From: Cyanidioschyzon merolae
Lineage: Eukaryota
Assembly: GCA_000091205.1 (NCBI GenBank)
Contig: AP006494.2
Strand: one strand, 5' to 3'
DNA: 64,000 nucleotides
Shown: positions 1,301 to 46,200 of the stretch, piece by piece
Numbering within the stretch: the first letter of the stretch is position 1
How the letters are laid out: each line of letters opens with the position of its first letter
Made by a program: the position numbers and the translations under genes
The notes under the pieces: generated by a model
The model's database searches: none
Told to the model about the DNA's origin: nothing
What the model saw: the letters and a program-made list of their open reading frames with translations, nothing else

Positions 1301-3028
1301 TTACTGCTCTGGACGGACGCGCTCTAGAAGCAGCTGCGCTTCAGAATAAAGAGGGCGCTGCAGGGTCCGGACCCAGCCACAATGTTGCGGAAAGGGTTCG
1401 CGCGGTTCCCAGTGATACAACCGCGCCCAGATCCGTAGATACATATCCTCAAGAGGTGCGGGTGTCATCAAAGTCTCTGGAGACTGATGCGCTCGCACGG
1501 GACGTTCTTGGCGAGACTGTGACGCCGTCGACGTCGACGACGATGACGTCGCGTCCGATGCGTGCAACGCCAAGACAGCGGGATCCAATAAAAGCCACTG
1601 CAGAAGCTCTGGAGTCTTCATGTGACTTGCGAGGAATCGAAGCGTGATGCGCGGCTCAAGACCGAGATCTTCAGCAATTTGCAAAATAATGGCGACTTGC
1701 ATTTGGTCTGTGTATGGAAGCAGGACTTTTCGAATCCTGGACTGGGTCTCGGATGTGAGAGGCGACGTGCTGGACTCTGTCATCGCAGCCTGCAAGCAGG
1801 CGAATGGCTGCGGTAGCATGTGCACCTGAATGCTGTGCAGGAGCGTACGCGTGTCCATGCTGGAAGCCGCTGGCACGTACAAGCTCTCGACGAGATCCCG
1901 GAATGCTGCCAGATGATGTTCATCACCAGGTTTTGGGGTCGATGGGTATCCCCGCATCCAGGGAACTGGTGTCCGTTGCTCAAAAATTGCATGCCTGGGG
2001 CAAGAGACACGCAAACGACCGCGGGAAACGAATCGCGGCTCTGGACGCCACCAGCCTGCCAGCAGTGCACACATGGGATGAAACACAACCGGGCAAGGAA
2101 CGTGGTGATCATCGTCTGGTTCGGAGTTTTTCTGCAACGGTACCCAGCAGCAGAACCGAAGTCCTCCCGCTGTTTCACAAAGCGTACATTGCTTGCTCAA
2201 GCACGAGTCGTGGTTAGGTGTCTCGTCCAGCACTTGCCGCGACACATGCTGCGGTGTGTGCGCGGATAGCGCAATCCCCTCGGCCGTTGAGGTCTCCTTC
2301 CCGAGTGAGGCTCTGTCTTCGCTCTTGACTGCGTCCTGGCAGCACCGAAATGCATCGAGGCATTCCCACGGCTCCGTAGGCTCTAATCGCGGATCCGCCA
2401 AGGCACAGATAACGTGAACGTAGCGCTCAACATGCGGTAGCTCGCTTGCAGCGTTCAGAGCGTTTGCTTCGATGATAGGTTTCATCGCTAGTCTATAGTC
2501 ACGTATCGGACACAATACACACTCAAATGGAGGCTCAGCGAGACACCGGGGCGATTCGCCGTGCGTACCGACGCCTGGACCAACAGCAGTCGACGGGTCC
2601 CTTTTCTTTCGTGAATCAACGGGGCTACTGGAAAATTCCAGATCGCAGTTATTTTCCGTGCGTGCATCCTGGTAGTTGTCCGGAAACACTGCATCAACCG
2701 ATGACGGTTCCGCTGTAGAACGTCGAGTGTCCCAGCAGACCGCGCAGTTCCACGCGAGTCCGAGCCAAGCCGGTTTCGTGCAGCTTCCCCCCGTTATCGG
2801 TGTCTGGTCTACGAGAGGGCTACGATGGACCTTCCGGTGCCGTTTCTGTGGGTTTTCGTTGGTTGGATGCACGTGTTGAGAAACGCTTGGTACTGATCTC
2901 CCTGGGAAGGGGAACGCCGGATAGCCGTAGCATGGCGCGTGTACCACGAGGCCACAGGCTTCGCAAGTCAGCGGCGGGTCTGACGGGGTAAACGGCTCGA
3001 GACAGACCCCACACAGTACCTTTTGCAT
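1301..3028 (-). CDS. PHD plus extended-PHD (PZP-like) zinc-finger protein, 575 aa
   Basis: Intact 575-aa ORF with a canonical Cys4-His-Cys3 pattern near the N-terminus (CGVCLEP...CEACGLVVHAPC). A second Cys/His-rich block follows (CVLCPIRDYRLAMKPI...VHVICA...CTLCETAGGLRFCC...HPMCA), typical of the PHD-Zn knuckle-PHD modules of BRPF/JADE/AF10-type chromatin readers. Codon usage matches neighbouring genes. Confidence 0.5.
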   Translation of the reverse strand: MQKVLCGVCLEPFTPSDPPLTCEACGLVVHAPCYGYPAFPFPGRSVPSVSQHVHPTNENPQKRHRKVHRSPLVDQTPITGGSCTKPAWLGLAWNCAVCWDTRRSTAEPSSVDAVFPDNYQDARTENNCDLEFSSSPVDSRKKRDPSTAVGPGVGTHGESPRCLAEPPFECVLCPIRDYRLAMKPIIEANALNAASELPHVERYVHVICALADPRLEPTEPWECLDAFRCCQDAVKSEDRASLGKETSTAEGIALSAHTPQHVSRQVLDETPNHDSCLSKQCTLCETAGGLRFCCWVPLQKNSEPDDDHHVPCPVVFHPMCALLAGWWRPEPRFVSRGRLRVSCPRHAIFEQRTPVPWMRGYPSTPKPGDEHHLAAFRDLVESLYVPAASSMDTRTLLHSIQVHMLPQPFACLQAAMTESSTSPLTSETQSRIRKVLLPYTDQMQVAIILQIAEDLGLEPRITLRFLASHMKTPELLQWLLLDPAVLALHASDATSSSSTSTASQSRQERPVRAHQSPETLMTPAPLEDMYLRIWARLYHWEPREPFPQHCGWVRTLQRPLYSEAQLLLERVRPEQ

Positions 3029-5480
3029 CCTTTGGAGAAGTTTGTTGCCTAACCGACCCTACCAAACCAGCTTCAGAAGTCGCGGTTTTGGTCAACTCAA
3101 ACGTGGACTTTGCGTCGTGCTGCGGACAAACCCAGACAGCGCTGGTTGTCGCTTGGCGGTGGCGTCTCGCGGGCGCAGCACGCCGGCGTTGCCGCTGCGG
3201 ATGCTACACTCGAGTCGGATAAAAATCGAGCACAGAATAGCTTTCCATCTCTTCCCAACACTTCATTTATTTCATAGATTTTTCTTAAATGTACAACCTG
3301 AGCGATCGAAGTGCAGCAATGAGAGATGAAGAGATCATGCGTAAATGAAGGATTCTTGGTCGTTTTTTGGAGTGGCTCTTTCGACGCTTTTCCGCTGGAC
3401 CTCGTTACGTCATCACGATGAAGGTGCGTCACCACCGACGTCACCACGCGTGCCCGAAATAACCGATATTATTATCCAGCTCACACGTTCAAGGTTTTAG
3501 CCTTCTCCGATCCTTACGTGCAGTATGCTCTAATTCACGTACCCGTCGAGGTTTCGAGCTTTCTATTTGAAGTCATCTGCTGGGCGCACTCGTTGGCGCC
3601 TATGGATTGACGGGACATATACTCGACGGCGTGCCTCGATGATGTTTCCGCAGGCTCATGCAGAATATGTTATGAGTTTCTCATGTCAACGGATCGATTC
3701 CGTTCCAAACGCGAATCCTCCTCTCTTCGTGGCCATAACTACAACAAAACGCGACAGCAGCATGATTCCTGTAACGGGAGACGCGCCAACAGGCTCCCGC
3801 CTCTTCTGTCTGCACGGAAACGGGTGCCGGATTCGCACCTGAGCCATCACAACGATCGCTTGGAGTGGAACGTGCGCCAATGCTTCGCGTGAAAGGAGTA
3901 TCGACGGATCGAAACTTCTCGACTTGTTTTGCATACCGAGCCTCGCTCCTGATCCTGTTTCCGTAGCGGACAATGTCGCATTCCACAAATCCTCTATCGA
4001 ATAAGACAGCGTGCCGTTGCGCGTGCAGCGCACAGAGTGCTCATCGACGGGATCGCGAAGAAGAAGCTCTTCTTCGTAGGGTATTGCACAGGGCGCGTAA
4101 ACGGAGGAAAGCATCGAGGCGCGCCGCTCTCAACCCGTCCAGGGCAAGTACCGGGCAATGACGCAAGCGTTCACGCGCCACAGATCTACGCTCGAGGAAG
4201 GACGGGGTTTCGTGGACTTCCTGAAACATCTAAGCACATTCAAACGTCATCGTTGCAAAAGACGCACTGTGGCTGTATAAAACGAATAGAAACAACGCAA
4301 ACGAAGCGTACATCGTACCTACTGCTTCTGCGTAAACAACGTCGACAACACCCAGAAGCCCCCACTCGCGACATGCACGTCACCATCAACATCCCGCAAC
4401 TGCTTCCAACGGAGCTGGGGGCAACGGCGAAACCGACGTATTGAACGCCAGCGATAAAAGAGCATATACAAGAGCAATCATCAAAAAACCCGCAAAGACT
4501 TGTGTTGTTGATGAAGATAGAAACCTAGAACTTAGTGTTTACGTCCGAGTTCACGAAATGGACCCATCCCATGGTTCATACGAACATCGCTGCCTAGCGC
4601 AGGCGCTCCGCGAGGATGCGATCATTGCGTGCAGATCGCCTCAGCGAGAGAGCGCCCCATCGAGATGCTCGCCCCAGGGTATATTCTAACAGCCAAGTTT
4701 CTCCAGCGTGTCGTGCAACGAAGACAAGCCTGCATCCGCAGACTGTCCGAGCACAAACTGACGACGAGACCCGATTCTACGTCGGGTGAACCACGCCTCG
4801 AGCCGACGCCCTTTGTGGTATAGCAAAGCCGTTCGAGCTCTATGAACTATCTGCTCCAGCGGTTCAAGCGCAAAGGTGGATGATTAGGGTAGGTACGAGG
4901 CACACACGATAGGACGTATGAAACGACCAAAATATCCGAGAAGAAGTCTAGGTAATGTAACTTGGAGGTAGGTGCTTCATCACGGACGCTTTCCCGAAAG
5001 CCGTTATCCGTTCCGAATTCTAGGATCCATGGTGAATGAAAACGTCTTGTCAATAAAAAAATCGCGCTCAATGGGCGCACCCCGGAGATCGGGCAGTCAA
5101 CTGACGCGATGCGCGTGCCGTTGTTGAAGGGAAACTCAATTGGGATCAGTAACGTGTTGTTCAGCTGTGAACGTCGGATATCGGTTCAGGCCATAGCAAA
5201 GTACAGTCTTTCGGTTCATTTTTGTTTCAAACTTCAAACAAGTCCAGTCAAGTGTTTTTTTGCAGTATATAACAGCAGGGTTCAAAGAGCGTTCTTGTTC
5301 AAAAAAAACTAATAAAAGGAAAACTATGCAAAAGTAAGTCGACGATCCTGGAGGCTCAGTGTCGCCGGCTACCAGAAGAAAACAAAAAACAGTGCCGAGT
5401 CCAGAAGAAAATGAAGAGAAGGAGGACTGAAAGGGGAGGCTCTACGTCGAAGGCGGCAAGAAAGACGACTGTACGACGAG

Positions 5481-5813
5481 ATGGTTGTGAAAACCTTTCT
5501 TCTTGGACATATGAAGGATCCCTACAAGGAAAAGTTGCGAGACGCTATCGAAACACGTGTCGACTCGTACTCGAAGAGTATTGTCAAGGCGTCGTCAGGA
5601 CTGATGCATTTAGCGAGGGACATGTACGAATACGTCGCGCACATGGAAACAGTCGAGATTCCAGACGAGTTTTTCGACAAGACGTTTATTGGTCGCCTGA
5701 TGCTTGGTACAGAGGAAGCGCGGAAGGAAAATGAGCTAGTGCATGCCCTCCACGAAAATTTTGCGGAATTCCGCTTCGAGGGTATTCGAATCAAGGGTGA
5801 CTGGGGTATTTAA
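5481..5813 (+). CDS. Possible N-terminal segment of the TnpB/Fanzor-like gene
   Basis: 110-aa ORF in the same frame as 5826..7439, separated from it only by a TAA at 5811-5813 plus 12 nt. An upstream ORF in another frame (5411..) begins MKRRRTERGGSTSKAARKTTVRRDG, an NLS-like basic peptide. This pattern suggests a decayed or intron-interrupted 5' end. Confidence 0.3.
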   Translation: MVVKTFLLGHMKDPYKEKLRDAIETRVDSYSKSIVKASSGLMHLARDMYEYVAHMETVEIPDEFFDKTFIGRLMLGTEEARKENELVHALHENFAEFRFEGIRIKGDWGI

Positions 5814-5825
5814 GACTCTGGGGCA

Positions 5826-7439
5826 ATGAAGTACATTACGAACCTGAAGAACCATTTGACAAAGAACCTGGAACGCTTCATGAAACGCGCCGTGTTTGCA
5901 CCCTACCCAGGCATCTCTTGCAATGGAAAATGGGCGATTATCCATGGCATCACGAATGATCGAAAGTATGAAGATGAGATCGAATTTGTCGACAAGAAGG
6001 CGTCAAAAGAGAGCACGAAAGAAGCTTCTGCGATCCGCGCGGTTTTACAAGAGCATCGTGCGCGACTGGGGCTGGCGAATCCAACAGGCAAGGTATCAGA
6101 GCTCAAAAAAGATAAGGAGAGATACTATCGCCTCATCCTGCGCTATTTTGTGTTGTTGGACCGTGAACTCGAACGCGAAGCGGAGATGAAGCTGAGTGAA
6201 GAGACAAATGAAGAGTGGGAGAGACGGAAGGCTTTCCTAACGGGGAAGCGCGTCAATGTGGTTCCGTTGGGCAACATCAAGTCACATTTTGTGACTATCG
6301 ACTCCGCAGTCCTTCATGGCATCATGAGGGAGATCAGTCCCGAGTTCGATGTTAGCAGGGAGGAATTCTCCGGTGAAAACCGGGAGACGTACTGGATGAG
6401 CATCTTCGATTTCAAACGTCCCAAAGTGAGCAAGAAAAAGGTATTCACAGGGTCGATCGAAACAGATGGAGTAGCCTTGTGTGTACACTATCGGCGGTTG
6501 AAGAAAGTTCGTCCAACTCCGCCTTCGGCTGCGCCCGTCATGAAGGATGAAGAAAACAAAGAGGAGGTTCCTGTGACGCAGGAGGAGCAGGATGACGACC
6601 TTGTCGTTGGCGTGACGAAGGATGAAGAAAACAAAGAGGAGGATCCTGTGACGCAGGAGGAGCAGGATAACGATTTTGTCGTTGGCGTGACGAAGGATGA
6701 AGATGAGAAGGAGGCGAGTCCTGCGACGCAGGAGGTGGAGAATAACGACTTTATGGTTGACGCGACGAAGCATGAAGAAAAGAAGGAGGCGGATCCTGCG
6801 ACCCACAAAGTGCAGGATAACGACTTTGTCGTTGGCGCGGACCCTGGGAATACGAGTATCATAAACATCGCTGCTCCCAAGCGTGCGGAAGATGGTACTG
6901 ATGGTAACTTACGTCAGAAAGACATGCGTCTGTTGAGGTTCTCGAGAGCCAGATACTATCGAGAATCGGGAATCATAAATGCAAGGAAGAAAATCGAGAC
7001 TTGGAATTCAGGAATGAAAGAGCACCTGGAAGCTTCGAGCGAGGTGACGAGCCGAGGAGCGGACTTTGAAGCTTTTCGGAAATTCACGGAAGTTCGCGTT
7101 GCTCATTGGGAGGCGCCGTGGGAGGAGTATACCAAGCCCCGGTGGGCTCGTTGGCGTATGAATTTGTATTGTGGGAAGCAGCGGGCATTCGCGAATTTTT
7201 TCAATCAACTGAGTGCCCTGAAGGAGAATCAAAGTGAGAGGTTGGTAGTGACGTACGGAGCAGGGCGCTGGATGACCCAAAAAGGAACTACGCCAGCTCC
7301 AACGACGAGAACGTACAAGGAGTGTGCACGGCGTTTTGTTACGATACCTGTAGATGAGTTCCGAACCTCGTATACACACCATGAGCTGGTGTGTACACTT
7401 CAGAGAGTTCGAGATGGAAAAGTGCCAGACGAACCCTGA
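5826..7439 (+). CDS. TnpB/Fanzor-like RuvC nuclease, main body (WED/REC-like region, RuvC-I, RuvC-II)
   Basis: 537-aa ORF. The motif [16 protein letters not shown] (Asp codon 6840-6842) matches the RuvC-I G-x-D-x-G motif of TnpB/Fanzor. The motif [11 protein letters not shown] (Glu codon 7355-7357) matches the RuvC-II V-x-E-x-x-TS motif. Spacing between the two is about 172 aa. An internal 4 x 25-aa acidic tandem repeat lies just upstream of RuvC-I. Confidence 0.5.
6543..6842 (+). repeat. Four tandem 75-bp in-frame repeats (25-aa acidic units) inside the TnpB/Fanzor-like ORF
   Basis: The unit gacgAAGGATGAAGAAAACAAAGAGGAGG.TCCTGTGACGCAGGAGGAGCAGGATAACGA.TTTGTCGTTGGCGTGACG repeats at 6543-6617, 6618-6692, 6693-6767 and 6768-6842, diverging progressively. 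Each copy ends in D(N/D)DFVVG(V/A), and the last copy runs into the RuvC-I GADPG motif. Confidence 0.9.
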
Positions 7440-7740
7440 GGATATGAAAAAGTACGGACCGCTGACGGAGGAGCAAATGGAAAGGAGAGCGAAATTTCGA
7501 GGGCTACTTGCATTAGTAAGTACAACCAGTGATGGCACGAAACGTATGGAGTTTGTGAACCGTGACTTTCATGCCGCTGTGAATATACGGAGATGCACGG
7601 TGCTGGAGAAGAGACCTCCAGAGTGGACAAGAGAGAACTTTGTTGGACAACCTCTCAAAGTCGAACTATATGAGAAAAAGTTGGAAGCAATAATAGGTGG
7701 CCGGTCCAGAAAGGCTGGGACGCATCTGCACGTCAGTTGA
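7354..7740 (+). CDS. C-terminal segment of the TnpB/Fanzor-like gene carrying RuvC-III
   Basis: 128-aa ORF overlapping the end of 5826..7439 in the +1 frame. It contains FVNRDFHAAVNIRRC (Asp codon 7564-7566), matching the D-x-N-A-A-x-N-I RuvC-III signature of IS605 OrfB/TnpB, Cas12 and Fanzor proteins. Cys/His residues between RuvC-II and RuvC-III (CVHF...EKC) may be a degenerate zinc finger. The frame shift implies a pseudogene or a short intron. Confidence 0.5.
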   Translation: MSSEPRIHTMSWCVHFREFEMEKCQTNPEDMKKYGPLTEEQMERRAKFRGLLALVSTTSDGTKRMEFVNRDFHAAVNIRRCTVLEKRPPEWTRENFVGQPLKVELYEKKLEAIIGGRSRKAGTHLHVS

Positions 7741-7827
7741 TGACGATTTGTATAGCGCGCGTTCGCCGCCACTACTGTACACTGCCAGCGACGTCGTTCG
7801 ACTTTCGAAGGGCGGTGACACAAGACC

Positions 7828-8871
7828 GTGTACATAAACATGTCTCAGTTGGATGACACACACGATCTACTAAACATGGGGGATGCGGGTTCCGGATCGA
7901 AAGAATCAGACTCTGCCTTGAGGCGTGGTGGTGACGTTTCGGGCGGCAAAGCAGCGCCAGTGAACGGTGCCGTGGCTGCTTCCGAAAGCGACAACGCAAG
8001 CAGCAGTAGCGCCGCATTACGTAATAGCAGCGCGTCGTTCCGGGAAGGTCCACCTGGAAGGCCACCTCTATTGAGCCAGAGGTTTACGGTGGCCCGTCAG
8101 CATCTACCGGGTCAGCTGCATGAGATCCTTATGTGGCGGAACAAGTACCGCTCGGGGCTCGCTTTCGCCTTGGGTAACTTGTTCTTCTATTTCACCACGT
8201 TCGGGGAACTGAGCATCATCACCGTATTCTCTATGATCGTGTTTTGGATCGTGCTACTGGGTTCGTGTCTCGTTCTCCTGAGCCGCGCACTGGCGTACCT
8301 GACGTCAGCGAGCCCCGTACCTGGCGCATCACCCGTTGGTACGACGGCACCGACGCGTCGCTTGCTGAACCGAGAAACTGCGGAGCGGCTCACGGAGAGC
8401 ACCATGAAAACGGTTAACGGGTTGGAGAACCTTTTGCGCGACGCAGCGCATTGTCGTGATTGGCAGCTCACCGTGAAGGTGCTCCTTGGCTCCTATCTGA
8501 TCGGCAAACTGGGACCGCTGTTTCTGAATATGTACATGGGATGGCTCATCTTTCTCAGCGTAATGACGTTACCCAAGGTTTACGAATGGAAGCAGCGTGA
8601 CATTGACGATCTCATTCGGGAAATTCAACCCGTTCTCCAGAGCAAGCTCTATGAAGCCGAGGCGCTCATCAAGAATCATATCAGCAGCGTGCTCTCCCAG
8701 ATACCGCCCAAGGTCCACGAGTACTCCGAGATGCTTCGAGCGCAGCTGCGCGCGCTGACGGGCGCATCCGACCGTGCACGAAGCAGCAGCAGCCGCCCGC
8801 CGTTTTCAGCCGGAACCAGTGCCGCAACATCGTCGTCCATGACAACCAGCGCTGAAACAAAGGAAGACTAA
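7828..8871 (+). CDS. Reticulon-like (RHD-containing) membrane protein, 347 aa
   Basis: An N-terminal acidic/Ser-rich region is followed by LHEILMWRNKYRSGLAFALGNLFFYFTTFGELSIITVFSMIVFWIVLLGSCLVLL, about 35 hydrophobic residues. A second long hydrophobic segment (VKVLLGSYLIGKLGPLFLNMYMGWLIFLSVMTL) follows, matching the two hairpin membrane segments of a reticulon homology domain. Confidence 0.5.
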   Translation: MYINMSQLDDTHDLLNMGDAGSGSKESDSALRRGGDVSGGKAAPVNGAVAASESDNASSSSAALRNSSASFREGPPGRPPLLSQRFTVARQHLPGQLHEILMWRNKYRSGLAFALGNLFFYFTTFGELSIITVFSMIVFWIVLLGSCLVLLSRALAYLTSASPVPGASPVGTTAPTRRLLNRETAERLTESTMKTVNGLENLLRDAAHCRDWQLTVKVLLGSYLIGKLGPLFLNMYMGWLIFLSVMTLPKVYEWKQRDIDDLIREIQPVLQSKLYEAEALIKNHISSVLSQIPPKVHEYSEMLRAQLRALTGASDRARSSSSRPPFSAGTSAATSSSMTTSAETKED

Positions 8872-11191: not shown

Positions 11192-12047
11192 CTGGCCGAA
11201 GCAGGTACTGCGACCTGGATCAGTCGAGTCTCCGTCTATACCTATGTACACAGCGTGGTGTTGATTTTCCCTGGAGGTCTTGGAGCATGTCGACGTCGAG
11301 CCAAGGCGCCAAGCGCACCCATCTACCAGGCATGTATCCGCTTTCCCGGACACGACAGACAACGCCGCCCGAGAAACCCATAGCCACGCGAGCACGCGCC
11401 CTGGCATACAGGCCCGGTGCCGTTGTGTCCCCCGTTTCCCGAGACAGGTCATAAACAAACCTCAGAAAAGCAGACTCCCACGACTAACGGTTACCGCTTG
11501 CACGCCTCATACGCTGTGCATGCTGCGTACGATCGACGGCATCGAATAAGCGCGTCATGAGGTTGCCGTTTGAGAGCGCCGGCCCAGAACGCCAAGCTAT
11601 GAAAAGCGCGCAGGTACCGGAAAAGCAGCTTGGTTTGTTACTGGAGCGAGGTTGTGTGCAGCTTTAGGAGGCGAGACATGCTGGAGACCGCGTTTCTTCA
11701 GTTGTTCCCGGTTGAAAAACCAGGAACAAGCAACCATTCGTCAACTGTGGTGGCACCGTGCGAAATGTTTGCATGCAGCATCTCGTCCACTGGCCTGGGA
11801 ACGTGCACGAACCGCTGGACGGTGCACGGAAGCCTTGCACCCGTCGTTTGGAATCCAGGCGGACACGAACAGTCCAGTCGCGATATCATGCAGGCATGCC
11901 GCTGACAACGCTGAAGGCACTGCTCCAGCGCTCTAGTCGTGTTGGATTAGAATGAAGCACTGAACTGCTTTCTGTATTTCTGGGCTGGGATTTTTCTCCG
12001 ACTTTTTTCTCTGAGACATACGGCCTCGGCGCTGGGAACGCAGCTAC

Positions 12048-12680
12048 AAGGGTTTACGGATGCGTACGCAGTTTGAGAATTCTCGGACGTCTTTTCGGTG
12101 TGGCCTGTTCGACTTTCTGCCGCTGGCTTTCGGTACATTACCGGACTGAAGATGGCTGGTGACGCTCTCGGAAACGGAGTCGTAAACTATCCGACATCAT
12201 GATCGAACGCTCACGTACAAATATTCATTCCTCAGTTTTCCTTACGTGTGGCATAGTTAAATCGTGCATGCTTTCTGTTTCTCTATCTTTCTATTTGACG
12301 CAACTCCCGGGGGCTGCAGTTCGTTGTCATGGACCTACGATCTTGTGAATTAGTCACCAAGCGCTACCATCGAGTTTTTTCCCTCGTCAATCCAGCTGCA
12401 CAAATTGCTATGTGCACAAGTTTCGCTGAAACAGAAAAAAGATAGACAGACGGCCAGCGTACGAAATCTGAGCATGCCAAACGTAAGGAAAACTGAGGAA
12501 TGAATACTTGTACGTGAGCGTTCGATCATGATGTCGGATAGTTTACGACTCCGTTTCCGAGAGCGTCACCAGCCATCTTCCGTCCGGTAATGTACCGAAT
12601 GCCAGCGGCAGAAAGTCGAACAGGCCGCACCGAAAAGACGTCCGAGAATTCTCAAACTGCGTACGCATCCGTAAACCCTT
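12048..12680. repeat. Near-perfect inverted repeat (two 200-bp arms, about 98% identical, 233-bp loop) forming a potential 633-nt hairpin
   Basis: Arm 12048-12247 (AAGGGTTTACGGATGCGTACGCAGTTTGAGAATTCTCGGACG...CCTCAGTTTTCCTTACGT) is the reverse complement of 12481-12680 with only 4 mismatches. The six-frame track shows the same peptide (MYR.PAAESRTG.TEKTSENSQTAYASVNP) on opposite strands at 11947-12138 and 12590-. Confidence 0.9.
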
Positions 12681-12890
12681 GGTGGTGCTCGCTGAATGTC
12701 CGGAATGTACATCTGAAAAGAGTATCGAACAAGTCGCAAGGCAGGAGCACAGCGAGTAGTTCTGTGTTCGATTGTAATCTGACACGGGTGTTCGGTACAC
12801 GCATCAAAGTACATGCGTATCGTCGCGAAACTGCACGGTTCCCATGCTTGCCGCCTACCACGCAGCACACCCGTGATAAATCGGATATCG

Positions 12891-24531: not shown

Positions 24532-25336
24532 GACTCGTAGCCTGTATTACTACGCTTTCACGAGCTGTTCACGCGTTCACCTGCCCGCGGGGAAACTTTC
24601 TCGCTTCAGGAGCGCAGGGTGCGCTGGCCTCGGCGACTGCCACGCACAGGCGTGTCCCGAGGCGCTACGCTGCGCTCTATCAGGAGACGCTCGCGCGAGT
24701 GCGCGACACTTGCCAGAAACAGTGAGGATAATGATCAAAGACGCACCGCCACGCGTACCACTGACCCTAGAACCGGCTTGCTACTTGGCATAGCGTCCAG
24801 ATCCGTTGTCGAACTGGGGGTCCTGCAATAGACGCTGACGCTGCGCCTCCTCTAACCCTCGCTACTGCGTTGGATGCTTGCTGCCGTCACCTGCGTGCCG
24901 TAACGACACACCGCAAGACTGGGCGGTGCACGAACCAATAGCTCTGGAGACAAGTCTGGGTCGCTATAATCGCACCATCCCCAGGACTTGGTGATGCAAT
25001 GAACAATGAATCCGAAGGCAAGCATTGGTGATTGCTAGCTAGTTAGCTAGCGGATCCTGAAAGTAGGTGCGGCAGCATAATGGACGCTTTTTCAACTACC
25101 AATATCCATGCATTCCGCAATCTGGGATCCATGATCAATGGAAACGTGTTGTCATCGAAAAAGAATCAGCACTAGTGCTGCGGACGTGGCACTGCGATCC
25201 CGTGAACGCATCCAAGAGCGGACGCACCGAGAACGGAACTCTTGGCTTTGGCTGCCGTTGCCGACCGCTGTGGCATACGTTGAAGCGACTGTTTCGGCAC
25301 TTGCAAGGTATATTACAGAAAAGTGCGTTGTACTAA

Positions 25337-38395: not shown

Positions 38396-41300
38396 TCATT
38401 TGCGTCGCTCAGCATCGCGTATGACGTGGAGCGGCGATTCGACGAGAGCGGCAACATGCCAGAGTAACCGATGCGAGACGGTGCTCGCGAGCTCCTGCTT
38501 TGTCCATCCATCGCCGGTACCCGCGCTTGCAGCGGATTCGTCTCCAGGGGATGTTGTGAGCAGGCGCAGGCTCGTGGCACTAGCACGCTGCATAGCGTCG
38601 AGGTTCGCGTCTCGTCCGGTGCCGGACTCGAGAACCTGAACCAGTGCCGCCGACAATACGCCGATAAGGGCCAAAAATTCCGCAGCCCAGGGAATCGCTT
38701 CCTCTGTCGACTGCGACGACTCGGAGTCAGCATCGCGAACGTGCATCATTGCGGCTTCGCGTTCAGTGTACAGCCAGCAGCCCAAACCGTGGAGCAACAC
38801 AAGATCTTGAGCGTTCTCCACTGACAGGACGCGCCAGCGAAGGAAAATATACAGGATCCAAAGCGCCAGCAGTTGCACGCGACTGAACGGCGGTGCGTTC
38901 CAGAGGATTCGCAGCCAGAAACACCACGGCGATGCGGCGGGCTCGCCGCCAGCCACCGCACCCGTCACGACTCGCAGCGCGTGGAGCGTGGACGCACGTC
39001 GGACGGTGCTCGCAGCGCCAATGATCGCTACGAAACCCAGGCAACCGACAAGCACGAGTTCCTGGCACGGCGAGCGAGCATCGTGATCCTGTCCGCTGAC
39101 CTGCTGCAGCCAGGATGCGACACTGCGTCCCATGTGACCTAGATACGCACTGGCGCGTTCTGCAGCATCGCCAGCATCAGCGTCGGTCTGCACCAGCGTC
39201 AACGCCAACGCCTGCATCGCGGAGAGCGCGGATAGCAGGTCTGCAGGTCCGAGTGCGTACTCGCTGGCAGCAAGTTCGCACAGATGCGCAGCAAGATCGC
39301 TTCGAGACGATACCAGTTGAGAAGTGCCCGCCGGGTGTGCAGCGCGGCGAACGCGCTGCCGCAGCTCATCCCAGAGCAGTGCACCAGCAACCCGAACCAG
39401 TGCCATACGCCTCGCGTAATCCTGTCGATGCAGGGTGTCGGGTACCTGCAGCGGTCTCGCGTCCGGTGCTCCCGGTCTATCCAGTGACGCGTGCAACCCA
39501 CTGAGAAGCCAAGGTAGTACTTGGCTTCGATGGATTGCATCCATGAGCGCTTGTGTTTCGGAGGCGTTCGGGCACTGGCCTGGCAGCGACCTGAACCACG
39601 CATCGGCGAACTGAACGAAGCGAGCGCGATCGTTGGTACGCAGCGTCAGCAACAGCACCTGGCGCCAGTGCCGCCATGGCGCCGCTCGCTGACGAATCGC
39701 AGCAGCGATCGCGTGAACGCGCCAGCTTTCCGAGACCGCTTCCGTGGCCTCGGATGACGTTGCCATCATCCATTCGTGCAGCGGCACCTGCTCGAGCAGC
39801 CACGACACAAGGTTCACCGGCAAGCGACTACCTGCCCAATGCATCCACAGAAAAATGACGTTGTCTTTCCAGGTCGTTTGCGCGGACTGTCCGCGCACCT
39901 CTGTACCTGGAAACAGATCTGCGCTGGTCTCTGGCATTCGCGATACGCTGAGCGCATCCAGCCAGTCGAAGAGTTCCGGTTGCCGACCAGCGAAGCATTT
40001 GTGGAAGCGCTGGCTACCTGTTGGCTGCGCGAGGACGGAACGCACAGCTTGGCGAGCGCGCTTCTCCAGAAGCGTCCGCTGAACCTGCGCATACCAGGCA
40101 AGTGGTGTGCACGGAACCGATGGACTCGACGCCGCAGTGTATCCCAGCAAGGTCCGCATCGCTGCCAACGACTCGACCAGCGCCTCGCCGGTCACGAATG
40201 ACGAGGCAGCGTCGCCCGTGGACGCGTCGTCGTCGTCGTCGTCGTGTAGCAGTACACGCCTTGGCGTCCTTGCTTCGTCTTCCGAGCACACCACCGGTAG
40301 CACTGCTTCGTAACGAATGCACGGCAGATTGCAAAGGCATCGCATCAAGGAATGCAGCACGGAAGCAATGGCCGGCAGCAGCTCTGTTCTGGACGGCTCC
40401 GTGTGCAGCGCCAGGAACGAGATGCGCCACAGCAGTATTGGATGCTGGGCAGCGCGAATCAGACGATGGCATTCTTCGAGATTCTTTCCGAGCGGTTGCA
40501 GGATTGGCCAGATCCGGATGAGCCACCAGCACCAGAGCCGCGGCGCGACGCTCGTCTGTGCGCATGAAAATACGTGGTTGTTGTTGTTGTCGTCGTCGTC
40601 GCCGCCGACATCACCACCAGCACCACCATCACCATCATCATCAACAATGTCGTCATGCTGGTCGTCGTCGTCGTCGTCGACTGCTGGCATCCGACCGGTG
40701 GCGTGGCGTTCACGGACTCGACGCTGGTGCTCGCGGTGTCGCGTGCTGGCTGCCGGAGACGGGCCCTGCTCGCCGCTAGCGTCGAGCGCAGTCACGGTAC
40801 CAGTGTCCGCGAATCCACTCGCTTCGACGGCTGCGCGATGGAGCACGCAAGTCGGCAGCGTCTCAACGATAAACGAGCGAGCAAGCGCAGCGCTCCCGGA
40901 AGCAGCGGACGCAACTTGTGCTGCGCTCTCAACCAGGTCGCGGAACTTGTCGCATGCGTACAAGGTCTCCAACAAAGATCTCCCCTGATCAGCACCGATA
41001 CCACGTTGCAGTTGCTGGAGCAGGCACGACGCAAAAACCCTTTCCTGGTCGGCTGCCGGGCACCTGGTGCATTCGGCGATGCGCAGGCGCTGGGCCAAGG
41101 CTCCGAACATCCCGCGCAGCGCGTGCCTGATGGGCGCCGAGCATCCGATGCCGGCGCGCTGCCGCTGTTGGGACAAGTCGCTCACCAGTGCCGCAAACTG
41201 GCGAATGACCTGTTCGTGACAGGGTATGCCTGTAGTCTTGACCAGTTTTCGGAGCACGGTCAGCAGTTCGAGCAGAAATCGCGATTGCTGTTGGTGCACG

Positions 41301-43156
41301 CCCCTGGAAATGCTCCAGCCTGGAGCTCGACAGCCATGCTCGTCAAGAAGTTTGCTCGCATGATGGCAGCACAGTGTGAACAGGAGCGTTGATCGACTAG
41401 AGAGTTCTTCCGACGGGAGTACCGCGCAAACCTGGAAGCAGGCGCGGAGTCGCAACTGACTTGAATCGCTCGTCACGAGACGCCCCGGCTGGGGTGCGTC
41501 TTGCGTCCAGCGTCGCGATGACAGCGGCGATGCCCAGGTTTGCCCGGCGGGTCCGCGCGCTGCGTCACCGTACGCGAGCGAGGCGCCCGGTTGGACCGCG
41601 ATCCCGGCATCCGCTGGTAACTGACGGTCACCGGATTTCTTTTCCAGGACTGCACCGTCACAGCAAATGCATTCTACCACATAGTCCGCGAAGCCGGAAA
41701 TGCGCAACGCCTCTGCGTCTTCCCAAAGGACGGCGTTCTCGTCGGCAGAGCGCACTGCGGCTGCGAGGACGCGCCCCAGCACCTGCAGCATGCCACGCAA
41801 GGAGCGCAACGCGAGGAGATTCAGCTCGAGGAAGTACGGCTGTGCGATGCATCGTTTCAAAAAATCCGACCATGGCGCCGACAAGGCGACCCGTCGCCAC
41901 CCGACGAATAGGTTCTCGGAATGCATTCGAGGTTGCACCTTAGCTATGCGCTGACACATGACGCTCGACATGGAGAGCACATTGGCGGCGTCGGCTGAGC
42001 AGGCACACCGCAGCGCTCGATGTGACACGAGTTGCATCAGTCGAGTGCAACATGAAAGCGCCGTCTCGGGGCTCATATACGCTCCCAGAGCTTGCATGAG
42101 CAGGCGCATGGTGTATAAGACACGCGTCGTCGCATTCGCCGCCTCGATGGCGGTTTCCCGATCTTGGCTACACTGAAGAAGCAGCTCGTGATCGAGGAAG
42201 GCGAGCAGCGCCTCAAACGCATCACGGCAAACGGTTCCGAGACGCTCGCGCCAACTAGCTGAATCAGAGACGGGCCCGGTGACGGCCGCTCGATAACCAA
42301 AACGGCACTGCTGCATTGCGACTAGCGGCTGACCAGCCTTCTCCCGGCACTGGGCGACTGCCACAAAGAATTGCAGAAAAGCACGCATCTCATGCCATAC
42401 GCCGTCCAGGCTGGCACAATGATGAGCAACCCCAACGAGGTATACGGTTTCCAGGGTGGAGGCGTCACCTTCAGGCCGCGCTCTCGAAATCTGCTGTGTG
42501 CATTTGGACGTGACGCAGCATCCGCTCATGGCGTTGTGAAGGTCAAACGCCCGGCTCGTGATCTGACAGAGCACCTGCAGAAGCGACGTGGTCAGGGCCC
42601 TCTGGCGACTGCTCGGTTTCAACGCTCGCTGCGTGGCCTGCTCCATTGGCGGCGGATTTGGTGCAAGCTCGGCACTGCCAGCAGCTACCGCAGTTGCGAT
42701 GCCATGAATCAGATACGCCAGCGCCTCGCCAAGCGCCGTGGCAGTAGCAGCAGCAGCAGCAGCAGCAGCCATGGAACCCTGCGACATCCCCAACGTGCCA
42801 TCCAAACCAGCAGGCGACTCGAGGAGCTCTAACCAGTCCAGGGCATACTGCAGCCTTGTCGCTGCACCCCGGTGATGCTCATCGGCGAGCACACGCACGA
42901 AGCACACAACACAGGGCTGTGCAGGCGCCAACGATCTTGAGCGCGAACGTGCAGCTCTTTCCAAGATCAGCCAACGACTTGGCTCTCCTGGATGCAACTT
43001 TTCGCACTCGTTCGAGTGGCTTTCCATCGAAGAAACCCCAGCGAAGTTTGATGTGTTTGTGAAAGCAACCCGACACAAAGACCTGCAATGACACGAGCGC
43101 GTACACACTCCAGAAATGCGTGCATGGAATACAAAACAAAGTCTGCAGCGCAGCAC
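38396..43156 (-). CDS. Giant hypothetical protein, 1586 aa, alpha-helical with long poly-Asp/His/Asn acidic tracts
   Basis: Single uninterrupted 4.76-kb ORF on the minus strand with host codon usage. Leu/Ala-rich predicted helical repeats throughout. Acidic tracts at VDDDDDDQHDDIVDDDGDGGAGGDVGGDDDDNNNN and LLHDDDDDDASTGD. No family recognised. Large antisense ORFs within it are shadow ORFs. Confidence 0.5.
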   Translation of the reverse strand: MLRCRLCFVFHARISGVCTRSCHCRSLCRVAFTNTSNFAGVSSMESHSNECEKLHPGEPSRWLILERAARSRSRSLAPAQPCVVCFVRVLADEHHRGAATRLQYALDWLELLESPAGLDGTLGMSQGSMAAAAAAAATATALGEALAYLIHGIATAVAAGSAELAPNPPPMEQATQRALKPSSRQRALTTSLLQVLCQITSRAFDLHNAMSGCCVTSKCTQQISRARPEGDASTLETVYLVGVAHHCASLDGVWHEMRAFLQFFVAVAQCREKAGQPLVAMQQCRFGYRAAVTGPVSDSASWRERLGTVCRDAFEALLAFLDHELLLQCSQDRETAIEAANATTRVLYTMRLLMQALGAYMSPETALSCCTRLMQLVSHRALRCACSADAANVLSMSSVMCQRIAKVQPRMHSENLFVGWRRVALSAPWSDFLKRCIAQPYFLELNLLALRSLRGMLQVLGRVLAAAVRSADENAVLWEDAEALRISGFADYVVECICCDGAVLEKKSGDRQLPADAGIAVQPGASLAYGDAARGPAGQTWASPLSSRRWTQDAPQPGRLVTSDSSQLRLRACFQVCAVLPSEELSSRSTLLFTLCCHHASKLLDEHGCRAPGWSISRGVHQQQSRFLLELLTVLRKLVKTTGIPCHEQVIRQFAALVSDLSQQRQRAGIGCSAPIRHALRGMFGALAQRLRIAECTRCPAADQERVFASCLLQQLQRGIGADQGRSLLETLYACDKFRDLVESAAQVASAASGSAALARSFIVETLPTCVLHRAAVEASGFADTGTVTALDASGEQGPSPAASTRHREHQRRVRERHATGRMPAVDDDDDDQHDDIVDDDGDGGAGGDVGGDDDDNNNNHVFSCAQTSVAPRLWCWWLIRIWPILQPLGKNLEECHRLIRAAQHPILLWRISFLALHTEPSRTELLPAIASVLHSLMRCLCNLPCIRYEAVLPVVCSEDEARTPRRVLLHDDDDDDASTGDAASSFVTGEALVESLAAMRTLLGYTAASSPSVPCTPLAWYAQVQRTLLEKRARQAVRSVLAQPTGSQRFHKCFAGRQPELFDWLDALSVSRMPETSADLFPGTEVRGQSAQTTWKDNVIFLWMHWAGSRLPVNLVSWLLEQVPLHEWMMATSSEATEAVSESWRVHAIAAAIRQRAAPWRHWRQVLLLTLRTNDRARFVQFADAWFRSLPGQCPNASETQALMDAIHRSQVLPWLLSGLHASLDRPGAPDARPLQVPDTLHRQDYARRMALVRVAGALLWDELRQRVRRAAHPAGTSQLVSSRSDLAAHLCELAASEYALGPADLLSALSAMQALALTLVQTDADAGDAAERASAYLGHMGRSVASWLQQVSGQDHDARSPCQELVLVGCLGFVAIIGAASTVRRASTLHALRVVTGAVAGGEPAASPWCFWLRILWNAPPFSRVQLLALWILYIFLRWRVLSVENAQDLVLLHGLGCWLYTEREAAMMHVRDADSESSQSTEEAIPWAAEFLALIGVLSAALVQVLESGTGRDANLDAMQRASATSLRLLTTSPGDESAASAGTGDGWTKQELASTVSHRLLWHVAALVESPLHVIRDAERRK

Positions 43157-43263: not shown

Positions 43264-46200
43264 GTAAACTGCGATCGCATGGAATGCGCAACGTGCTCAG
43301 GTGCCAGCCGGATTCACCTTCTGTGTGTGTGTGATCAGCAAAACGACAAACGTTCTACGACCATGACGGGTAAATATAAATACCCTTTCACAGACGCATC
43401 CTAGGCTTATTTGACCCGCCGACTGCTATCGAGTTCAGTTTTTCCTTCTAAACTTCGAGCCTGAGAGGCTGTACCACCAAGTTGGCTCGCGTCAACTCCG
43501 CGGGTCTCTTGTCTTTGGCACCGCGCATCGACTTGTATATTAATCGAGGCGTTGACGTCTCGGCTCACGAACTCTTTCCGTGGATTGACGCAGGTTGAAT
43601 CCATCAGTGCAAGAAATGTTAGAACTCGTGCGCTCTCTGCCACTGCAGTCTCATCGTTATCCTGTCGGGCAAACATCTTTCCTCGCCTATCTATCCTCTA
43701 CTTCTTCTATGTCAATTGCTCTTCTTCGCTCGATAGTCGACGACGCGAACATGTTTCGTTCTTCTCTGGCATCCGGCAATGACGGCCGTTCAGGATCCTC
43801 GACGTGCATCTCCAGACCTGTCTCTTAGATTCTTAATATCTTCAAATGAACGCGCTCGGAGCGCAGCTGCTGTAAACCGCGGAAAAGTATTTGATGACAC
43901 GCACCTAAGCTTGGAACATACTTGAGATGATTGACTAGAAAAGCGCACTGAGCGACTGAGACGCTTCTGCTTGCGGGCTGCTCAGTTGCATGGTGGCATG
44001 TGTGTGCGGGCTTCTCATGCTCGAACAGGGCGCACGTGCGCATCTATACTTCATGGGAGCGACACACGCGCGACGCTGAATCAAGCGAGTCCCGCGGGGC
44101 GCTGCTATGGAAGGGCTGGCGAAGCCGCTCGGCGATAGCTCACTCGTGGCGTTTTAGCAGCGACACCAGCGGCAGCTGCGACAGATACAAGTGCATGTAA
44201 TTGATGCGGGTGGCCATGTGCTCACTCGGACGCCTCTCGAGGCAGGTGTTGCGCGTTGGGACGTCCGGTCCACGGTGCCGCAGGTACCACGAGGGTATCG
44301 TTGCATAGCGTCTGAAAGCACGCGCACTCTTGGAACAAGTCACTGGTGTTGCAGAAGTATTTGCTGCGTGTAAACGCGAACTCTTTTGAAGTCTCGTGTG
44401 CGTGTAAATACCACGGTACTTCTGTAGAGCGGGCAGCGCGACCTCCACGTGACGTCTTTCTCACAGCGCCTGACCTGAACGGCACTGTCCAGGCGGACGA
44501 AAGCTGGAATACCCGTGTGCGGCTTTGCTTCCTTGCGTTAGTCGGGTCTGCTCGAGCTCACGGTTGCACAGGTCCCGTCAATACTGCTCAGTCGTTTCCC
44601 AGCGACCGCGGTATCACCAAGGTCGCAACACGTCGCCCCAGGCGTCAGCATTGTGTGCACGATTGGTCAAATCGACAGATCGATCAGGCACCTCGTCCGG
44701 TGTCCGATGAACGTGGCGTACTGGACTGCTCGCTGAGTTCCTGCTGTTCGATCTCTTTTCTGAACATTTATGAATGCACGTTCGCAGCACTCCATGTACA
44801 GAAGACAGGAATTACGGATTCATACGTGGTTTTAGGATTCGTGATCATCCTTTGGGTATGCCTATCGACGAAACCGCACGCTATACCCTCTTGATATCTC
44901 GCGCGGGAAACGTACGCAGAGGTGTACATCTCGTCTATTTGCATGAAAACAGGGGTTCTTGGACCCGGAGTTTATTAATCGCAGCGATTGTGTCTAGCGA
45001 GGAACGCATCACGATTGTGCTTAAAGCGAGTTTAGAAAGATCGAGATTTTCGCACTGGTTCTTTAGGTTGGATGCCCTTCCAGTACTTGTCATATCATGG
45101 ACATGCTATTGTTCCACGATTTCTCTATGTGATGTACCAGTGTGCGCGTGGGTTTCCACAGGATACAGTACTCGTCGACGGGCCACTCAGAGCAATTTGG
45201 TTACTGTGGAATACGACACTAGACGCGGGCGCACACGAGGCCATCGCGGGCAGCCTCTCTCCTTGTCACCGGAATGTACCGAGCGATCATGCAAACGTTC
45301 ACGCGTTACAGCGCGACGAGTACCAGGAGGACGAGGACCGGTGATCATGGACATATGGGATGCTGATTACATTCAAGTGTCACTACTGCGAGTGGCGCAC
45401 CGAGAATCTATCGAAAAAAAGACGAAAATGGCAAGCAGAGTGTAGATAACAACTGCCGTCTGTGCATGAAACGCGTTGTCAATAACCGGAAACAGGACAA
45501 AATGTACCTTAACAATGCCATCGACGTTCTTCCACTGCTTCTAGTGAAGCTTGGTACCAGAAGAGACCTGTTTATTTCAAGCCTGACGATATGTAAGAGA
45601 AACGGAAACTGTCGAAGAACAATCCCACAAATCCTAATAGTTATGACAACGAGAAGAACTGAGTTTGAAACGCGTACACCCGAGTTCGATTCCCCGTTCC
45701 ATTTTCTCCTGAAGCAGCTGTCGTGGAACGTGGCAGAGGTCTGGAACGCGACCGCGGGCGCTGCATCATTGATCAGAAGCCTCACTGATAACCAACGCGT
45801 ACTTGGAAATCCCTGGTCAATGTAAAACGCTCTCCAAAACGATGGAAAATGGATCTGGTGCTAGAAGCAAACCTTTCCTGAAACAGTGCAGGCATCGACA
45901 TCTCGTACGCGCTGTACTGTGGAGGTTGCCAGAAGAAAGAAGCGCGCCCCAGTTCGGCGCGACGCAGCGCCAAGCAATGTGAGCGGGCGTTGCGCTCAGC
46001 GTCCAGCATTCTACTTGCCCATGTTAGCGAGGCAGCCAACACGTTTACGTCTAGAGCCATTGGATCTGGAAACCCTCGATAGGGTGATTCAGAGACGGCA
46101 CGAGGAGCGGGCTATTCCGGAGCGAGCGACGCGGGACTTGGCGCCGGCCGAGCAGGACAGGACACTAGCTTCTGGCAGGGCGAGCGTCTCCGCCGGTCCA

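Follow-up and report, generated by a model that had tools for sequence, protein, structure and literature searches.

What occupies the compositionally distinct stretch that separates two genes in this window, a 64,000-nucleotide stretch of Cyanidioschyzon merolae DNA (contig AP006494.2), and how much of it belongs to a mobile element? A sequence-only reading had proposed that a 4.7-kb island of about 45-50% GC at 3050-7830 marks the extent of an inserted Fanzor/TnpB-type element. The dip itself is real, but it lies at the upper edge of that range: GC is 50.6% for 3050-7830, whereas the window averages 56.3% (sd 2.2, 4781-bp windows), and only 0.5% of 4781-bp windows are equally low, all of them overlapping the island itself. 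The depression is modest and also uneven, since 400-bp windows at 3800-5000 reach 53-57%, while the lowest stretches are found at 3200-3600 (46.5%) and 5000-6000 (44-49%). The dip is the intergenic region separating a PHD-like zinc-finger gene on the left (1301-3028, minus strand; PHD-type Pfam matches, all under the curated cut-offs) from a reticulon gene on the right (ATG at 7840; significant Pfam match), and both flanking genes are as previously described. The A/T-rich tracts noticed earlier were located at about 5053-5061 and 5257-5330, and the longest ORF in 3050-5400 does not exceed 142 aa, as had been claimed.

Three segments can be distinguished within the dip, with GC contents of 52.5% (3050-4672), 50.0% (4673-5060) and 49.5% (5061-7818). 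The last of these (plus strand, 2.76 kb, comprising a leader, a Fanzor1 pseudogene and a 3' tail) is, judged by consensus and copy alignments, a degenerate core copy of CMe-1A, a Fanzor1 family already described from C. merolae in 2013. The published consensus (3169 bp) does align, with its positions 648-2193 matching 5063-6612 at 82.5% identity and 2122-3169 matching 6766-7814 at 89.6%; consensus 283-647 has no counterpart in the window copy. The core is also 80-85% identical to approximately 60 metagenome copies with sharp ends. Together with the Fanzor1 profile and fold matches given below, the consensus alignment bears out the presence of a Fanzor/TnpB-type element.

The left end of the core carries a 6-bp hairpin (GCGCTC aat GGGCGC, 5061-5079, plus strand; family consensus GCGCTC ggt GAGCGC) and begins ATCGCGCTC..., a start which is joined to at least eight unrelated upstream sequences in independent copies. 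The right end is sharp at 7814-7818, where the homology to all other copies stops, and metagenome contigs yielded at least 38 independent right ends (78-87% identity). A 3' boundary had been predicted at about 7650-7830, running into the reticulon gene, and the observed end indeed lies 21-25 nt ahead of the reticulon ATG. The element ends ATCGCG... and ...GGCGTT are not TA-flanked. In copies elsewhere the 5' ends are variable or truncated and the 3' end does not vary. The ends of 3000-8000 are not linked by any inverted repeat, so terminal inverted repeats (TIRs) are absent; no recognisable target site duplication (TSD) was found for the element, no transposase gene lies within it, and no clear motif is shared by the left flanks of independent copies. 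The two ends, joined to many unrelated flanks, are now sharper than in the original CMe-1A description.

A short unique flank (7819-7839, plus strand) separates the element end from the reticulon ATG, and the orthologous contigs run on across it at >99% identity. The insertion is present in every orthologous contig recovered. Because no empty site was found among these contigs, the insertion at this locus is read from the repeat boundaries alone. The sequence-only reading had itself named what would undo its proposal, namely that the dip is a plain, long, AT-richer promoter or intergenic region in which the nuclease gene is incidental. The modest and patchy GC dip and the low-copy spacer at 3050-4672, found in all orthologous contigs, would suit such a region, but the repeat at 5061-7818 coincides with the lowest-GC part, its GC of 49.5% is matched by 49.6-50% in other copies wherever these are located, and no relative lacking the nuclease gene was found at the locus. 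We therefore regard this explanation of the dip as improbable.

Adjoining the left end of the core is a 388-bp fragment (4673-5060, minus strand) that matches the 5' part of CMe-1A, with consensus 4-282 aligning inverted to window 5052-4770 at 79.5% identity. The 5' 635 bp of CMe-1A is TE-N2_CMe according to the authors of the family (Bao and Jurka, 2013, PMC3627910). Around other copies the TE-N2-like unit occurs on either side, upstream or downstream, and in either orientation. Five loci (L001, L013, L019, L022, and L030) have their left breakpoint at 4673, and a sixth, L067, has it at 4680. The left boundary is thus ambiguous, lying at 5061 if the core is meant or at 4673 for a composite subfamily with an inverted TE-N2-like part (L013, L019, L022, and L030).

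The remaining left part of the dip, 3050-4672, is low-copy intergenic DNA outside the Fanzor element. It is carried by orthologous contigs L083-L085 at 96-99.6% identity, and no locus was found with this stretch contiguous to the core. Pieces of 3280-4462 have blastn matches of just 63-73% at a few loci, and by this measure the sequence at about 3600-4460 holds diverged remnants of an older repeat. The 142-aa ORF (3686-4114, minus strand; ORF scan) is probably not a conserved gene: a protein database search returned only the ORF itself, no Pfam match was obtained, and it does not resemble the ORF that occupies the corresponding place in the distant ortholog L086, with tblastn stretches 34-48% identical to it occurring near other Fanzor copies. 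On the plus strand, 3672-3998 gives a weak tblastn match to a DDE_3 transposase (query L088 protein, 24% identity, E 0.009), which could be an older transposase relic upstream of the element.

This match, and the diverged paralogs of 3600-4460 near other copies, are what might be expected if the whole 4.7-kb island were one composite insert, for example of Tc1/mariner type with a decayed DDE_3 gene upstream of Fanzor, as in the metagenomic relatives L087-L096 (44-51% aa identity, same orientation, total approximately 3.6 kb). However, a Pfam search with translations of 3534-4441 gives no trace of DDE_3 up to E 10, DDE_3 relics of the same genome give no match to 3000-5200, the island is without TIRs, and an unrelated inverted TE-N2-like fragment separates the two parts. 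Moreover, 3050-4672 is contiguous with the core in no copy and is absent from the published CMe-1A consensus. A single composite insert is highly improbable and has already been largely refuted, and the 4.7-kb island does not stand as the extent of the element, given that the repeated DNA covers only 4673-7818. Overall, the dip is very probably an intergenic patchwork of low-copy spacer, inverted TE-N2_CMe-like fragment and degenerate CMe-1A core rather than one insert.

Is the nuclease gene of this core still a working gene? The coding region (5326-7740, plus strand) was defined by global alignment to a 734-codon consensus CDS, with 87% identity. It carries premature stops at 5335 (TAA), 5428 (TGA) and 5811 (TAA), and two uncompensated frameshifts, -1 at about 5434 and +1 at about 7406-7410. 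Because of these three stops and two frameshifts the window copy cannot make a Fanzor1 protein; it is a pseudogene and a dead member of the family. Comparison with the consensus CDS also revealed an in-frame, acidic tandem repeat of 75 bp (25 aa) in four units (6536-6839, plus strand), three of which (225 bp) are extra relative to CMe-1A. The number of units differs between copies, and the counterpart in the intact homolog P0001 (residues 390-470) is disordered in the AF2 model. P0001 is the one intact gene among 30 sampled full-length metagenome copies, the other 29 being disrupted at differing places.

It could be argued that the gene is functional and that the stops and frameshift represent introns, recoding or sequencing errors, considering that the codons for all three catalytic residues (D, E, and D) are still there and that one family member is intact. 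We find this hardly credible. The lesions are five and independent, the stop at 5811 is a one-base change of a conserved Tyr codon, aligned to a Tyr of P0001 without an intron-sized gap, and the P0001 frame is continuous across the position equivalent to 7410 (protein alignments). Independent metagenome assemblies of the locus show the same sequence (97-99.6% identity), and 29 of 30 copies are broken, each at different places.

By profile, predicted fold and invariant catalytic residues, the protein family to which this pseudogene belongs is Fanzor1. The family profile matches PpFz1 (9cf0; 2e-26), SpuFz1 (8gkh; 2.3e-17) and GtFz1 (9cer; 7.4e-13) in the PDB, the window ORF alone reaching only E 0.84. 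The AF2 model has a pLDDT of 80.6, and Fanzor1 structures fill its top seven Foldseek ranks (E 4e-16 to 2e-13). All 36 sequences of alignment A3 keep the catalytic D484, E656, and D725. The corresponding plus-strand codons persist in the window at 6840-6842 (RuvC-I Asp, GADPGN), 7356-7358 (Glu in VDEFRTS, aligned to IDEFRTS of PpFz1) and, in the shifted frame, 7564-7566 (RuvC-III Asp in NRDFHAAVN, aligned to NRDQAA of PpFz1). Pfam PF07282 is carried by the most distant homologs only, and no CxxC pairs (zinc finger) occur between DEFRTS and NRD in the family or in relatives at 24-51% identity. As the fold and profile matches are strong, the missing CxxC...CxxC is treated as clade variation.

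Downstream of the coding region, a non-coding 3' tail (7741-7818, plus strand; alignment of 39 independent right ends) is the candidate omega RNA scaffold. Within it are a conserved block, CCACTACTGTAC, and a stem, GGCG/CGCC, that is paired in 84% of cells without covariation. The tail closes with a terminal hairpin, degraded in the window copy (7789-7816, plus strand), for which the family consensus is CGTCGTTCGA-CTT-TCGAACGGCG followed by TT, and variant copies have AACGTTTTTC-TTTT-GAAAGGCGTT. The small palindromes spotted earlier in this segment were confirmed (cgacgtcg, 7789-7796; ttcgactttcgaa, 7797-7809) and turn out to be this terminal hairpin. It is kept in about three quarters of the 39 independent copies (mean z -1.66). 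Three helices were proposed by eye, namely two small stems and the terminal hairpin. Pairing holds in 69% of their cells vs. 37-56% in slid controls, but their covariation across the 39 right ends was not above shuffles. RNAalifold gave no consensus fold of the 3' end (-0.89 and -3.77 kcal/mol) and an Rfam search gave no match. The proposed check for structure and covariation across copies was thus answered in part, with a conserved terminal hairpin but neither covariation nor a consensus fold; RNAalifold, covariation counts, z-scores and Rfam do not support a conserved structured RNA. An omega RNA from the 3' end of the element is plausible.

By analogy with solved Fanzor1 complexes, an intact CMe-1A copy would encode a TnpB-like RuvC nuclease that binds an omega RNA transcribed from the 3' end of the element, with the last roughly 15-20 nt, copied from DNA past the right end, guiding cleavage of matching DNA. 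An omega RNA of the window copy, if one is made, would take its guide from the flank 7819-7839, and this copy could at most supply RNA in trans to the one intact copy of the 30 full-length metagenome copies.

The terminal and subterminal hairpins may instead be DNA-level transposition signals for an HUH-type transposase encoded elsewhere (rolling-circle or single-strand, Helitron- or IS200/IS605-like) and not an omega RNA scaffold. Helitrons begin with 5' TC and end with 3' CTRR, carry a subterminal hairpin near the 3' end, insert between A and T, and have a Rep-helicase encoded somewhere in the genome. The core starts with TC, which follows an A in most independent copies, has the 3' hairpin, and is followed by T after the terminal GGCG in most copies, but the CTRR terminus is absent and a Rep/helicase gene was seen in none of the examined loci with Pfam annotation. 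IS200/IS605-like elements are recognised by a TnpA (Y1 HUH) gene and by subterminal hairpins on the left and on the right; here a hairpin lies at each end, and a TnpA gene is absent from the element. The lack of TIRs and TSD, the constant 3' and variable or truncated 5' ends, a variant contig (L080) whose breakpoint coincides with the 5' foot of the terminal hairpin, and the listing of Chlamydomonas Fanzor1 families as Helitron-borne would all agree with an HUH-type signal. However, G-U is the commonest pair at two terminal-hairpin stem positions and is possible on the sense strand only, which fits a sense-strand RNA better than DNA. The two roles are also compatible. The right end of IS200/IS605 elements serves as transposition signal and RNA scaffold alike. 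We consider a purely DNA-level role unlikely, though deserving of some weight.

A bolder proposal is that in natural Cyanidioschyzon populations, where the one intact gene, P0001, would persist, the TIR-less core (ends ATCGCGCTC... and ...GGCGTT; sense-strand terminal hairpin) is still active as a self-sufficient, omega-RNA-guided element, spread or retained without its own transposase, and that the insertion now serves as reticulon promoter or 5' UTR; this we judge very unlikely. In itself, the finding re-identifies a single decayed member of a Fanzor1 family on record since 2013, and it matters little. The intact copy and the conserved terminal hairpin would be starting points for testing a red-algal Fanzor and its omega RNA.

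CMe-1A has about 150 copies, each ~80% identical to the consensus, with no TIRs and with TSDs given as undetermined (Bao and Jurka, 2013, Mob DNA 4:12, PMC3627910). The window copy resembles it in the family traits of copies at ~80% to consensus, lack of TIRs, no determined TSD and TE-N2_CMe association, and is 82.5-89.6% identical to the consensus over the whole core; the CMe-1 protein (734 aa) is the same protein, with motifs including NRDFNAAIN in common. It differs in that its TE-N2-like part is inverted and shortened (388 vs. 635 bp), consensus 283-647 is missing, three 75-bp units are extra, and the ORF is destroyed. The solved Fanzor1 proteins SpuFz1 (8GKH), PpFz1 (9CF0) and GtFz1 (9CER) resemble the family in fold, with TM reaching 0.71 on the target, match its profile significantly and have an identical catalytic D/E/D; the non-coding stem-loop tail of the element ends at the element boundary, where the omega RNA of those enzymes meets the guide. 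Compact omega RNA scaffolds of only two stem-loops are known (Saito, 2023, PMC10432273; Xu, 2024, PMC11423790). However, sequence identity is only 12-16%, the whole CMe-1 clade lacks CxxC...CxxC between DEFRTS and NRD, and the CMe-1 family, known here from sequence and predicted fold alone, contains an acidic insert of 25-aa repeats.

TnpB of bacterial IS200/IS605 elements, together with its omega RNA (reRNA), would be comparable in its RuvC nuclease gene, a guide RNA that extends outwards past the right end, hairpins in subterminal position, and lack of TIR or TSD, but the host here is eukaryotic, TnpA is absent, and sequence similarity to TnpB is seen only via Fanzor1 or Cas12 folds. The closest relatives are the Tc1/mariner-borne Fanzor1 proteins of L087-L096, 44-51% identical to the CMe-1 family; PUl-1 and PUl-2 are likewise "Mariner" Fanzor1 families (Bao and Jurka, 2013, PMC3627910). 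A relic elsewhere in the window (58.4-59.8 kb) has DDE_3 followed by a Fanzor C-terminus, in the gene order of L087-L096. The element described here was itself considered as a Tc1/mariner (DDE_3) element and rejected, with no TIRs, no Pfam DDE_3 in 3534-4441, and ends that are not TA-flanked. L087-L096 have a DDE_3 transposase gene together with TIRs of roughly 28-30 bp that end in TA, whereas CMe-1A has none of these. The nearest relatives of CMe-1A thus ride in Tc1/mariner elements, and CMe-1A has lost both transposase and TIRs.

The Fanzor family to which the window element belongs is already published: CMe-1A was described in Cyanidioschyzon merolae by Bao and Jurka (2013; PMC3627910). They reported about 150 copies with identities of about 80% to a consensus of roughly 3 kb, no TIRs and no TSDs determined, and noted that the 5′ 635 bp are identical in sequence to another element, TE-N2_CMe. 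The 3169-bp consensus was taken from the supplement of that paper and aligned to the window. Consensus 648-2193 matches 5063-6612 (+) at 82.5% identity, consensus 2122-3169 matches 6766-7814 (+) at 89.6%, and consensus 4-282 aligns to 5052-4770, inverted, at 79.5%. By these alignments, the window element is a CMe-1A copy in which the TE-N2-like part is inverted and shortened. Together with the base composition, the match points to C. merolae or a near relative as the source.

At the protein level, direct searches of the window ORFs against Pfam, NCBIfam, PHROGs, and PDB gave nothing significant, so the search had to be made with a family profile; by itself, the window ORF reaches SpuFz1 at no better than E 0.84. 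The ORF did retrieve 111 homologous proteins, nearly all from JGI metagenomes, and a profile of 36 family members matched all three solved Fanzor1 nucleases in PDB, namely PpFz1 (2e-26), SpuFz1 (2.3e-17), and GtFz1 (7.4e-13). An AlphaFold model of P0001, an intact family protein, reached a pLDDT of 80.6 and a pTM of 0.77, and its first seven Foldseek hits were solved Fanzor1 structures followed by Cas12 proteins. The Fanzor element suspected in the sequence-only reading had therefore been correctly spotted, by consensus match as well as by Fanzor1 profile and fold. The Asp, Glu, and Asp of the motifs GADPGN, DEFRTS, and NRDFNAA are invariant across the 36-member alignment, whereas the CxxC pairs of the usual Fanzor zinc finger are lacking in this clade. 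An acidic 25-aa (75-bp) repeat at 6536-6839 separates the RRLKK..PPSA segment from the GADPGN motif; its unit number differs among copies (locus L001 and others), and the AF2 model shows the corresponding P0001 residues, 390-470, as disordered.

Alignment to the 734-codon consensus CDS shows that translation of the window copy (+) would stop prematurely at 5335, 5428, and 5811. Its frame is also shifted by -1 at about 5434, without compensation, and by +1 at about 7406-7410, and the 75-bp repeat is expanded in frame by 225 bp; judged by these lesions, the copy is a pseudogene. Only one of 30 full-length copies, that of L001 encoding P0001, keeps the full ORF. Differences among copies at codon positions 1, 2, and 3 are 0.15, 0.13, and 0.22, a mild third-position bias that fits neutral decay after insertion. 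P0001 (752 aa, L001:10001-12259), the sole intact family member found, is encoded by a gene with a 2OG-Fe(II) oxygenase gene on one side and a GRAM/VASt gene on the other, belongs to a 90%-identity cluster of 22 member sequences, and is found again, at 99% identity, in L002, which comes from another metagenome; this may be the active or master copy. Head-to-head pairs of partial or full copies occur in several of the loci L043, L044, L056, L058, L060, L042, L052, and L055, with breakpoints inside the 75-bp repeat region or close to it, and three loci of this set carry 5′-truncated copies with a common start equivalent to window 6880-6883.

The extent of the element was defined by blastn of the window against 71 loci fetched in a scan with P0001. 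The core, 5061-7814/7818, is common to about 60 of these loci at 80-85% identity; its right end is sharp at 7814-7818, and on the upstream side of its left end the copies carry at least eight sequences unrelated to one another. The adjoining 4673-5060 is a separate repeat, which occurs either way round and on the upstream or the downstream side of other Fanzor copies, and abuts the core as it does in the window in one subfamily (L013, L019, L022, L030). No sequence left of 4673 travels with the core among the fetched loci. The insert therefore does not span the whole 4.7-kb island, which had been proposed as its candidate extent. Pieces of 3280-4462 gave only short matches of 63-73% in a few loci, and a TIR search of the island was negative. 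Conserved homologs of the 142-aa ORF at 3686-4114 (-) were not found and it was rejected as a conserved gene, while follow-up searches gave no corroboration for a DDE_3 transposase relic in 3500-4500. Window 3600-4460 belongs to a diverged repeat family (63-72% nt, 34-48% aa) without a Pfam match, which is also present in L001, L038, L040, L041, L049, L054, and L057 and recurs at most 5 kb from several Fanzor copies.

As for composition, the claimed GC island is genuine but modest and patchy. G+C in 3050-7830 is 50.6%, against a mean of 56.3% (sd 2.2) for 4781-bp windows of the whole stretch, and the 0.5% of such windows that are equally low all overlap the island. The lowest stretches are 3200-3600 and 5000-6000, and 400-bp windows between 3800 and 5000 reach 53-57%. 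Smaller features of the same reading held up: 3050-5400 has no ORF above 142 aa, the A/T tracts are present on inspection, and the palindromes cgacgtcg and ttcgactttcgaa lie at 7789-7796 and 7797-7809. The genes of the window are eukaryotic, intron-poor, and about 56% GC. One flank of the island holds a PHD-like zinc-finger gene whose Pfam matches all fall below curated cut-offs, and the other a reticulon gene with a significant Pfam match.

The 3′ boundary was predicted accurately, the element ending at 7814-7818, 21-25 nt before the reticulon ATG (7840). This spacing, in the same orientation, is seen in every orthologous contig recovered. Because the right end is so close to the ATG, the reticulon promoter or 5′ UTR must, going by position, lie within or read out of the element 3′ end. 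Reticulon contigs from ten samples either carry the element at over 97% identity or end inside it, and the zinc-finger side is carried by three contigs that run into the repeat. The comparison with orthologous loci thus produced no element-free allele among the recovered contigs carrying the reticulon or zinc-finger protein; the sole distant ortholog, L086, has no reticulon nearby. Two contigs were set aside. L073 was rejected as a different upstream context, its 5′ half being another copy (82% identity) joined at the tandem repeat, and it is probably an assembly chimera. L080:1-1404 (JGI 3300050386, Ga0506592_001031) is a variant of the zinc-finger/reticulon locus in which no more of the element stands ahead of the reticulon gene than its final 27 nt, which make up the terminal hairpin. 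Homology breaks precisely at the 5′ foot of the hairpin, and upstream of this point lies unrelated DNA that contains a 383-aa ORF and tandem repeats of 123 bp. L080 may reflect a genuine rearrangement or a chimeric assembly and, as a single case, was not accepted as an empty site.

Whether the 3′ end encodes an omega RNA can be argued from both sides. A terminal hairpin, CGTCGTTCGA-CTT-TCGAACGGCG plus TT, is common to 39 independent right ends, and a variant subfamily has a hairpin of different sequence, AACGTTTTTC-TTTT-GAAAGGCGTT, that also folds and has the same GGCGTT end. The terminal hairpin is retained in about three quarters of copies (mean z -1.66, below -1.5 in half), and at two stem positions the commonest pair is G-U, a pair that forms on the sense strand only. 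Recurrence, z-scores, and sense-strand G-U pairs would be in favour of a structured RNA. Counting against it, the structure and covariation check across copies gave almost no consensus structure in RNAalifold (-0.89 kcal/mol over 223 columns, -3.77 over 112) and no covariation above shuffles in three helices proposed by eye (two small stems and the terminal hairpin), the final 100 nt or so fold with unexceptional energies (window copy z = +0.81), and Rfam gave no match. A tRNA search was negative. The 3′ tail is also less conserved than the ORF, pairwise differences of 0.31 vs. 0.22 at third codon positions refuting the opposite view. Overall, a candidate omega RNA at the CMe-1A 3′ end is plausible, since among the solved Fanzor1 omega RNAs there are very small ones that have two stem-loops only.

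Other relics are scattered through the window. A DDE_3 (Tc1/mariner-type) transposase relic at 58932-59834 (-; tblastn E 2.7e-15) is closely followed, on its downstream side, by a Fanzor C-terminus relic at 58417-58576 (-), 68% identical to consensus 2849-3012. The gene order is that of the related TIR-bearing loci L087-L096; no TIRs were found around the pair (58.4-59.8 kb). An older CMe-1-like relic with an internal deletion, at 43391-43574 (-) and 43754-43925 (-), is 69-72% identical to consensus 2904-3083 and 800-967 and is situated just downstream of a long ORF (38396-43156), beside a local GC dip. An isolated fragment at 25044-25157 (-) is 78% identical to the first 107 bp of the consensus (TE-N2_CMe part). 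A 251-nt inverted repeat pair (12040-12290 and 12438-12688, 91% complementary, 147-nt spacer), which lies in a further local GC dip downstream of the IMPDH gene, looks like a foldback or MITE-like element, its arms giving very weak DDE_3 tblastn matches (E 0.14 and 0.87).

It is possible that CMe-1A spreads by a rolling-circle or single-strand mechanism, as its subterminal hairpins, the (A)TC start of the core, and the constant 3′ end across copies would suggest; however, no CTRR end was seen, nor any Rep gene in the fetched loci with Pfam annotation. Fanzor proteins 44-51% identical to the family sit in DDE_3-bearing, TIR-bearing elements, and the 3′ tails of L088 and L093-L096 have in common a stem-loop with ACTG(T/G)A after it, in an alignment too poor for statistics. 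Compared with CMe-1A, which has lost the transposase gene, the TIRs, and the TA ends, these DDE_3 relatives carry an upstream DDE_3 transposase gene and 28-30-bp TIRs ending in TA.
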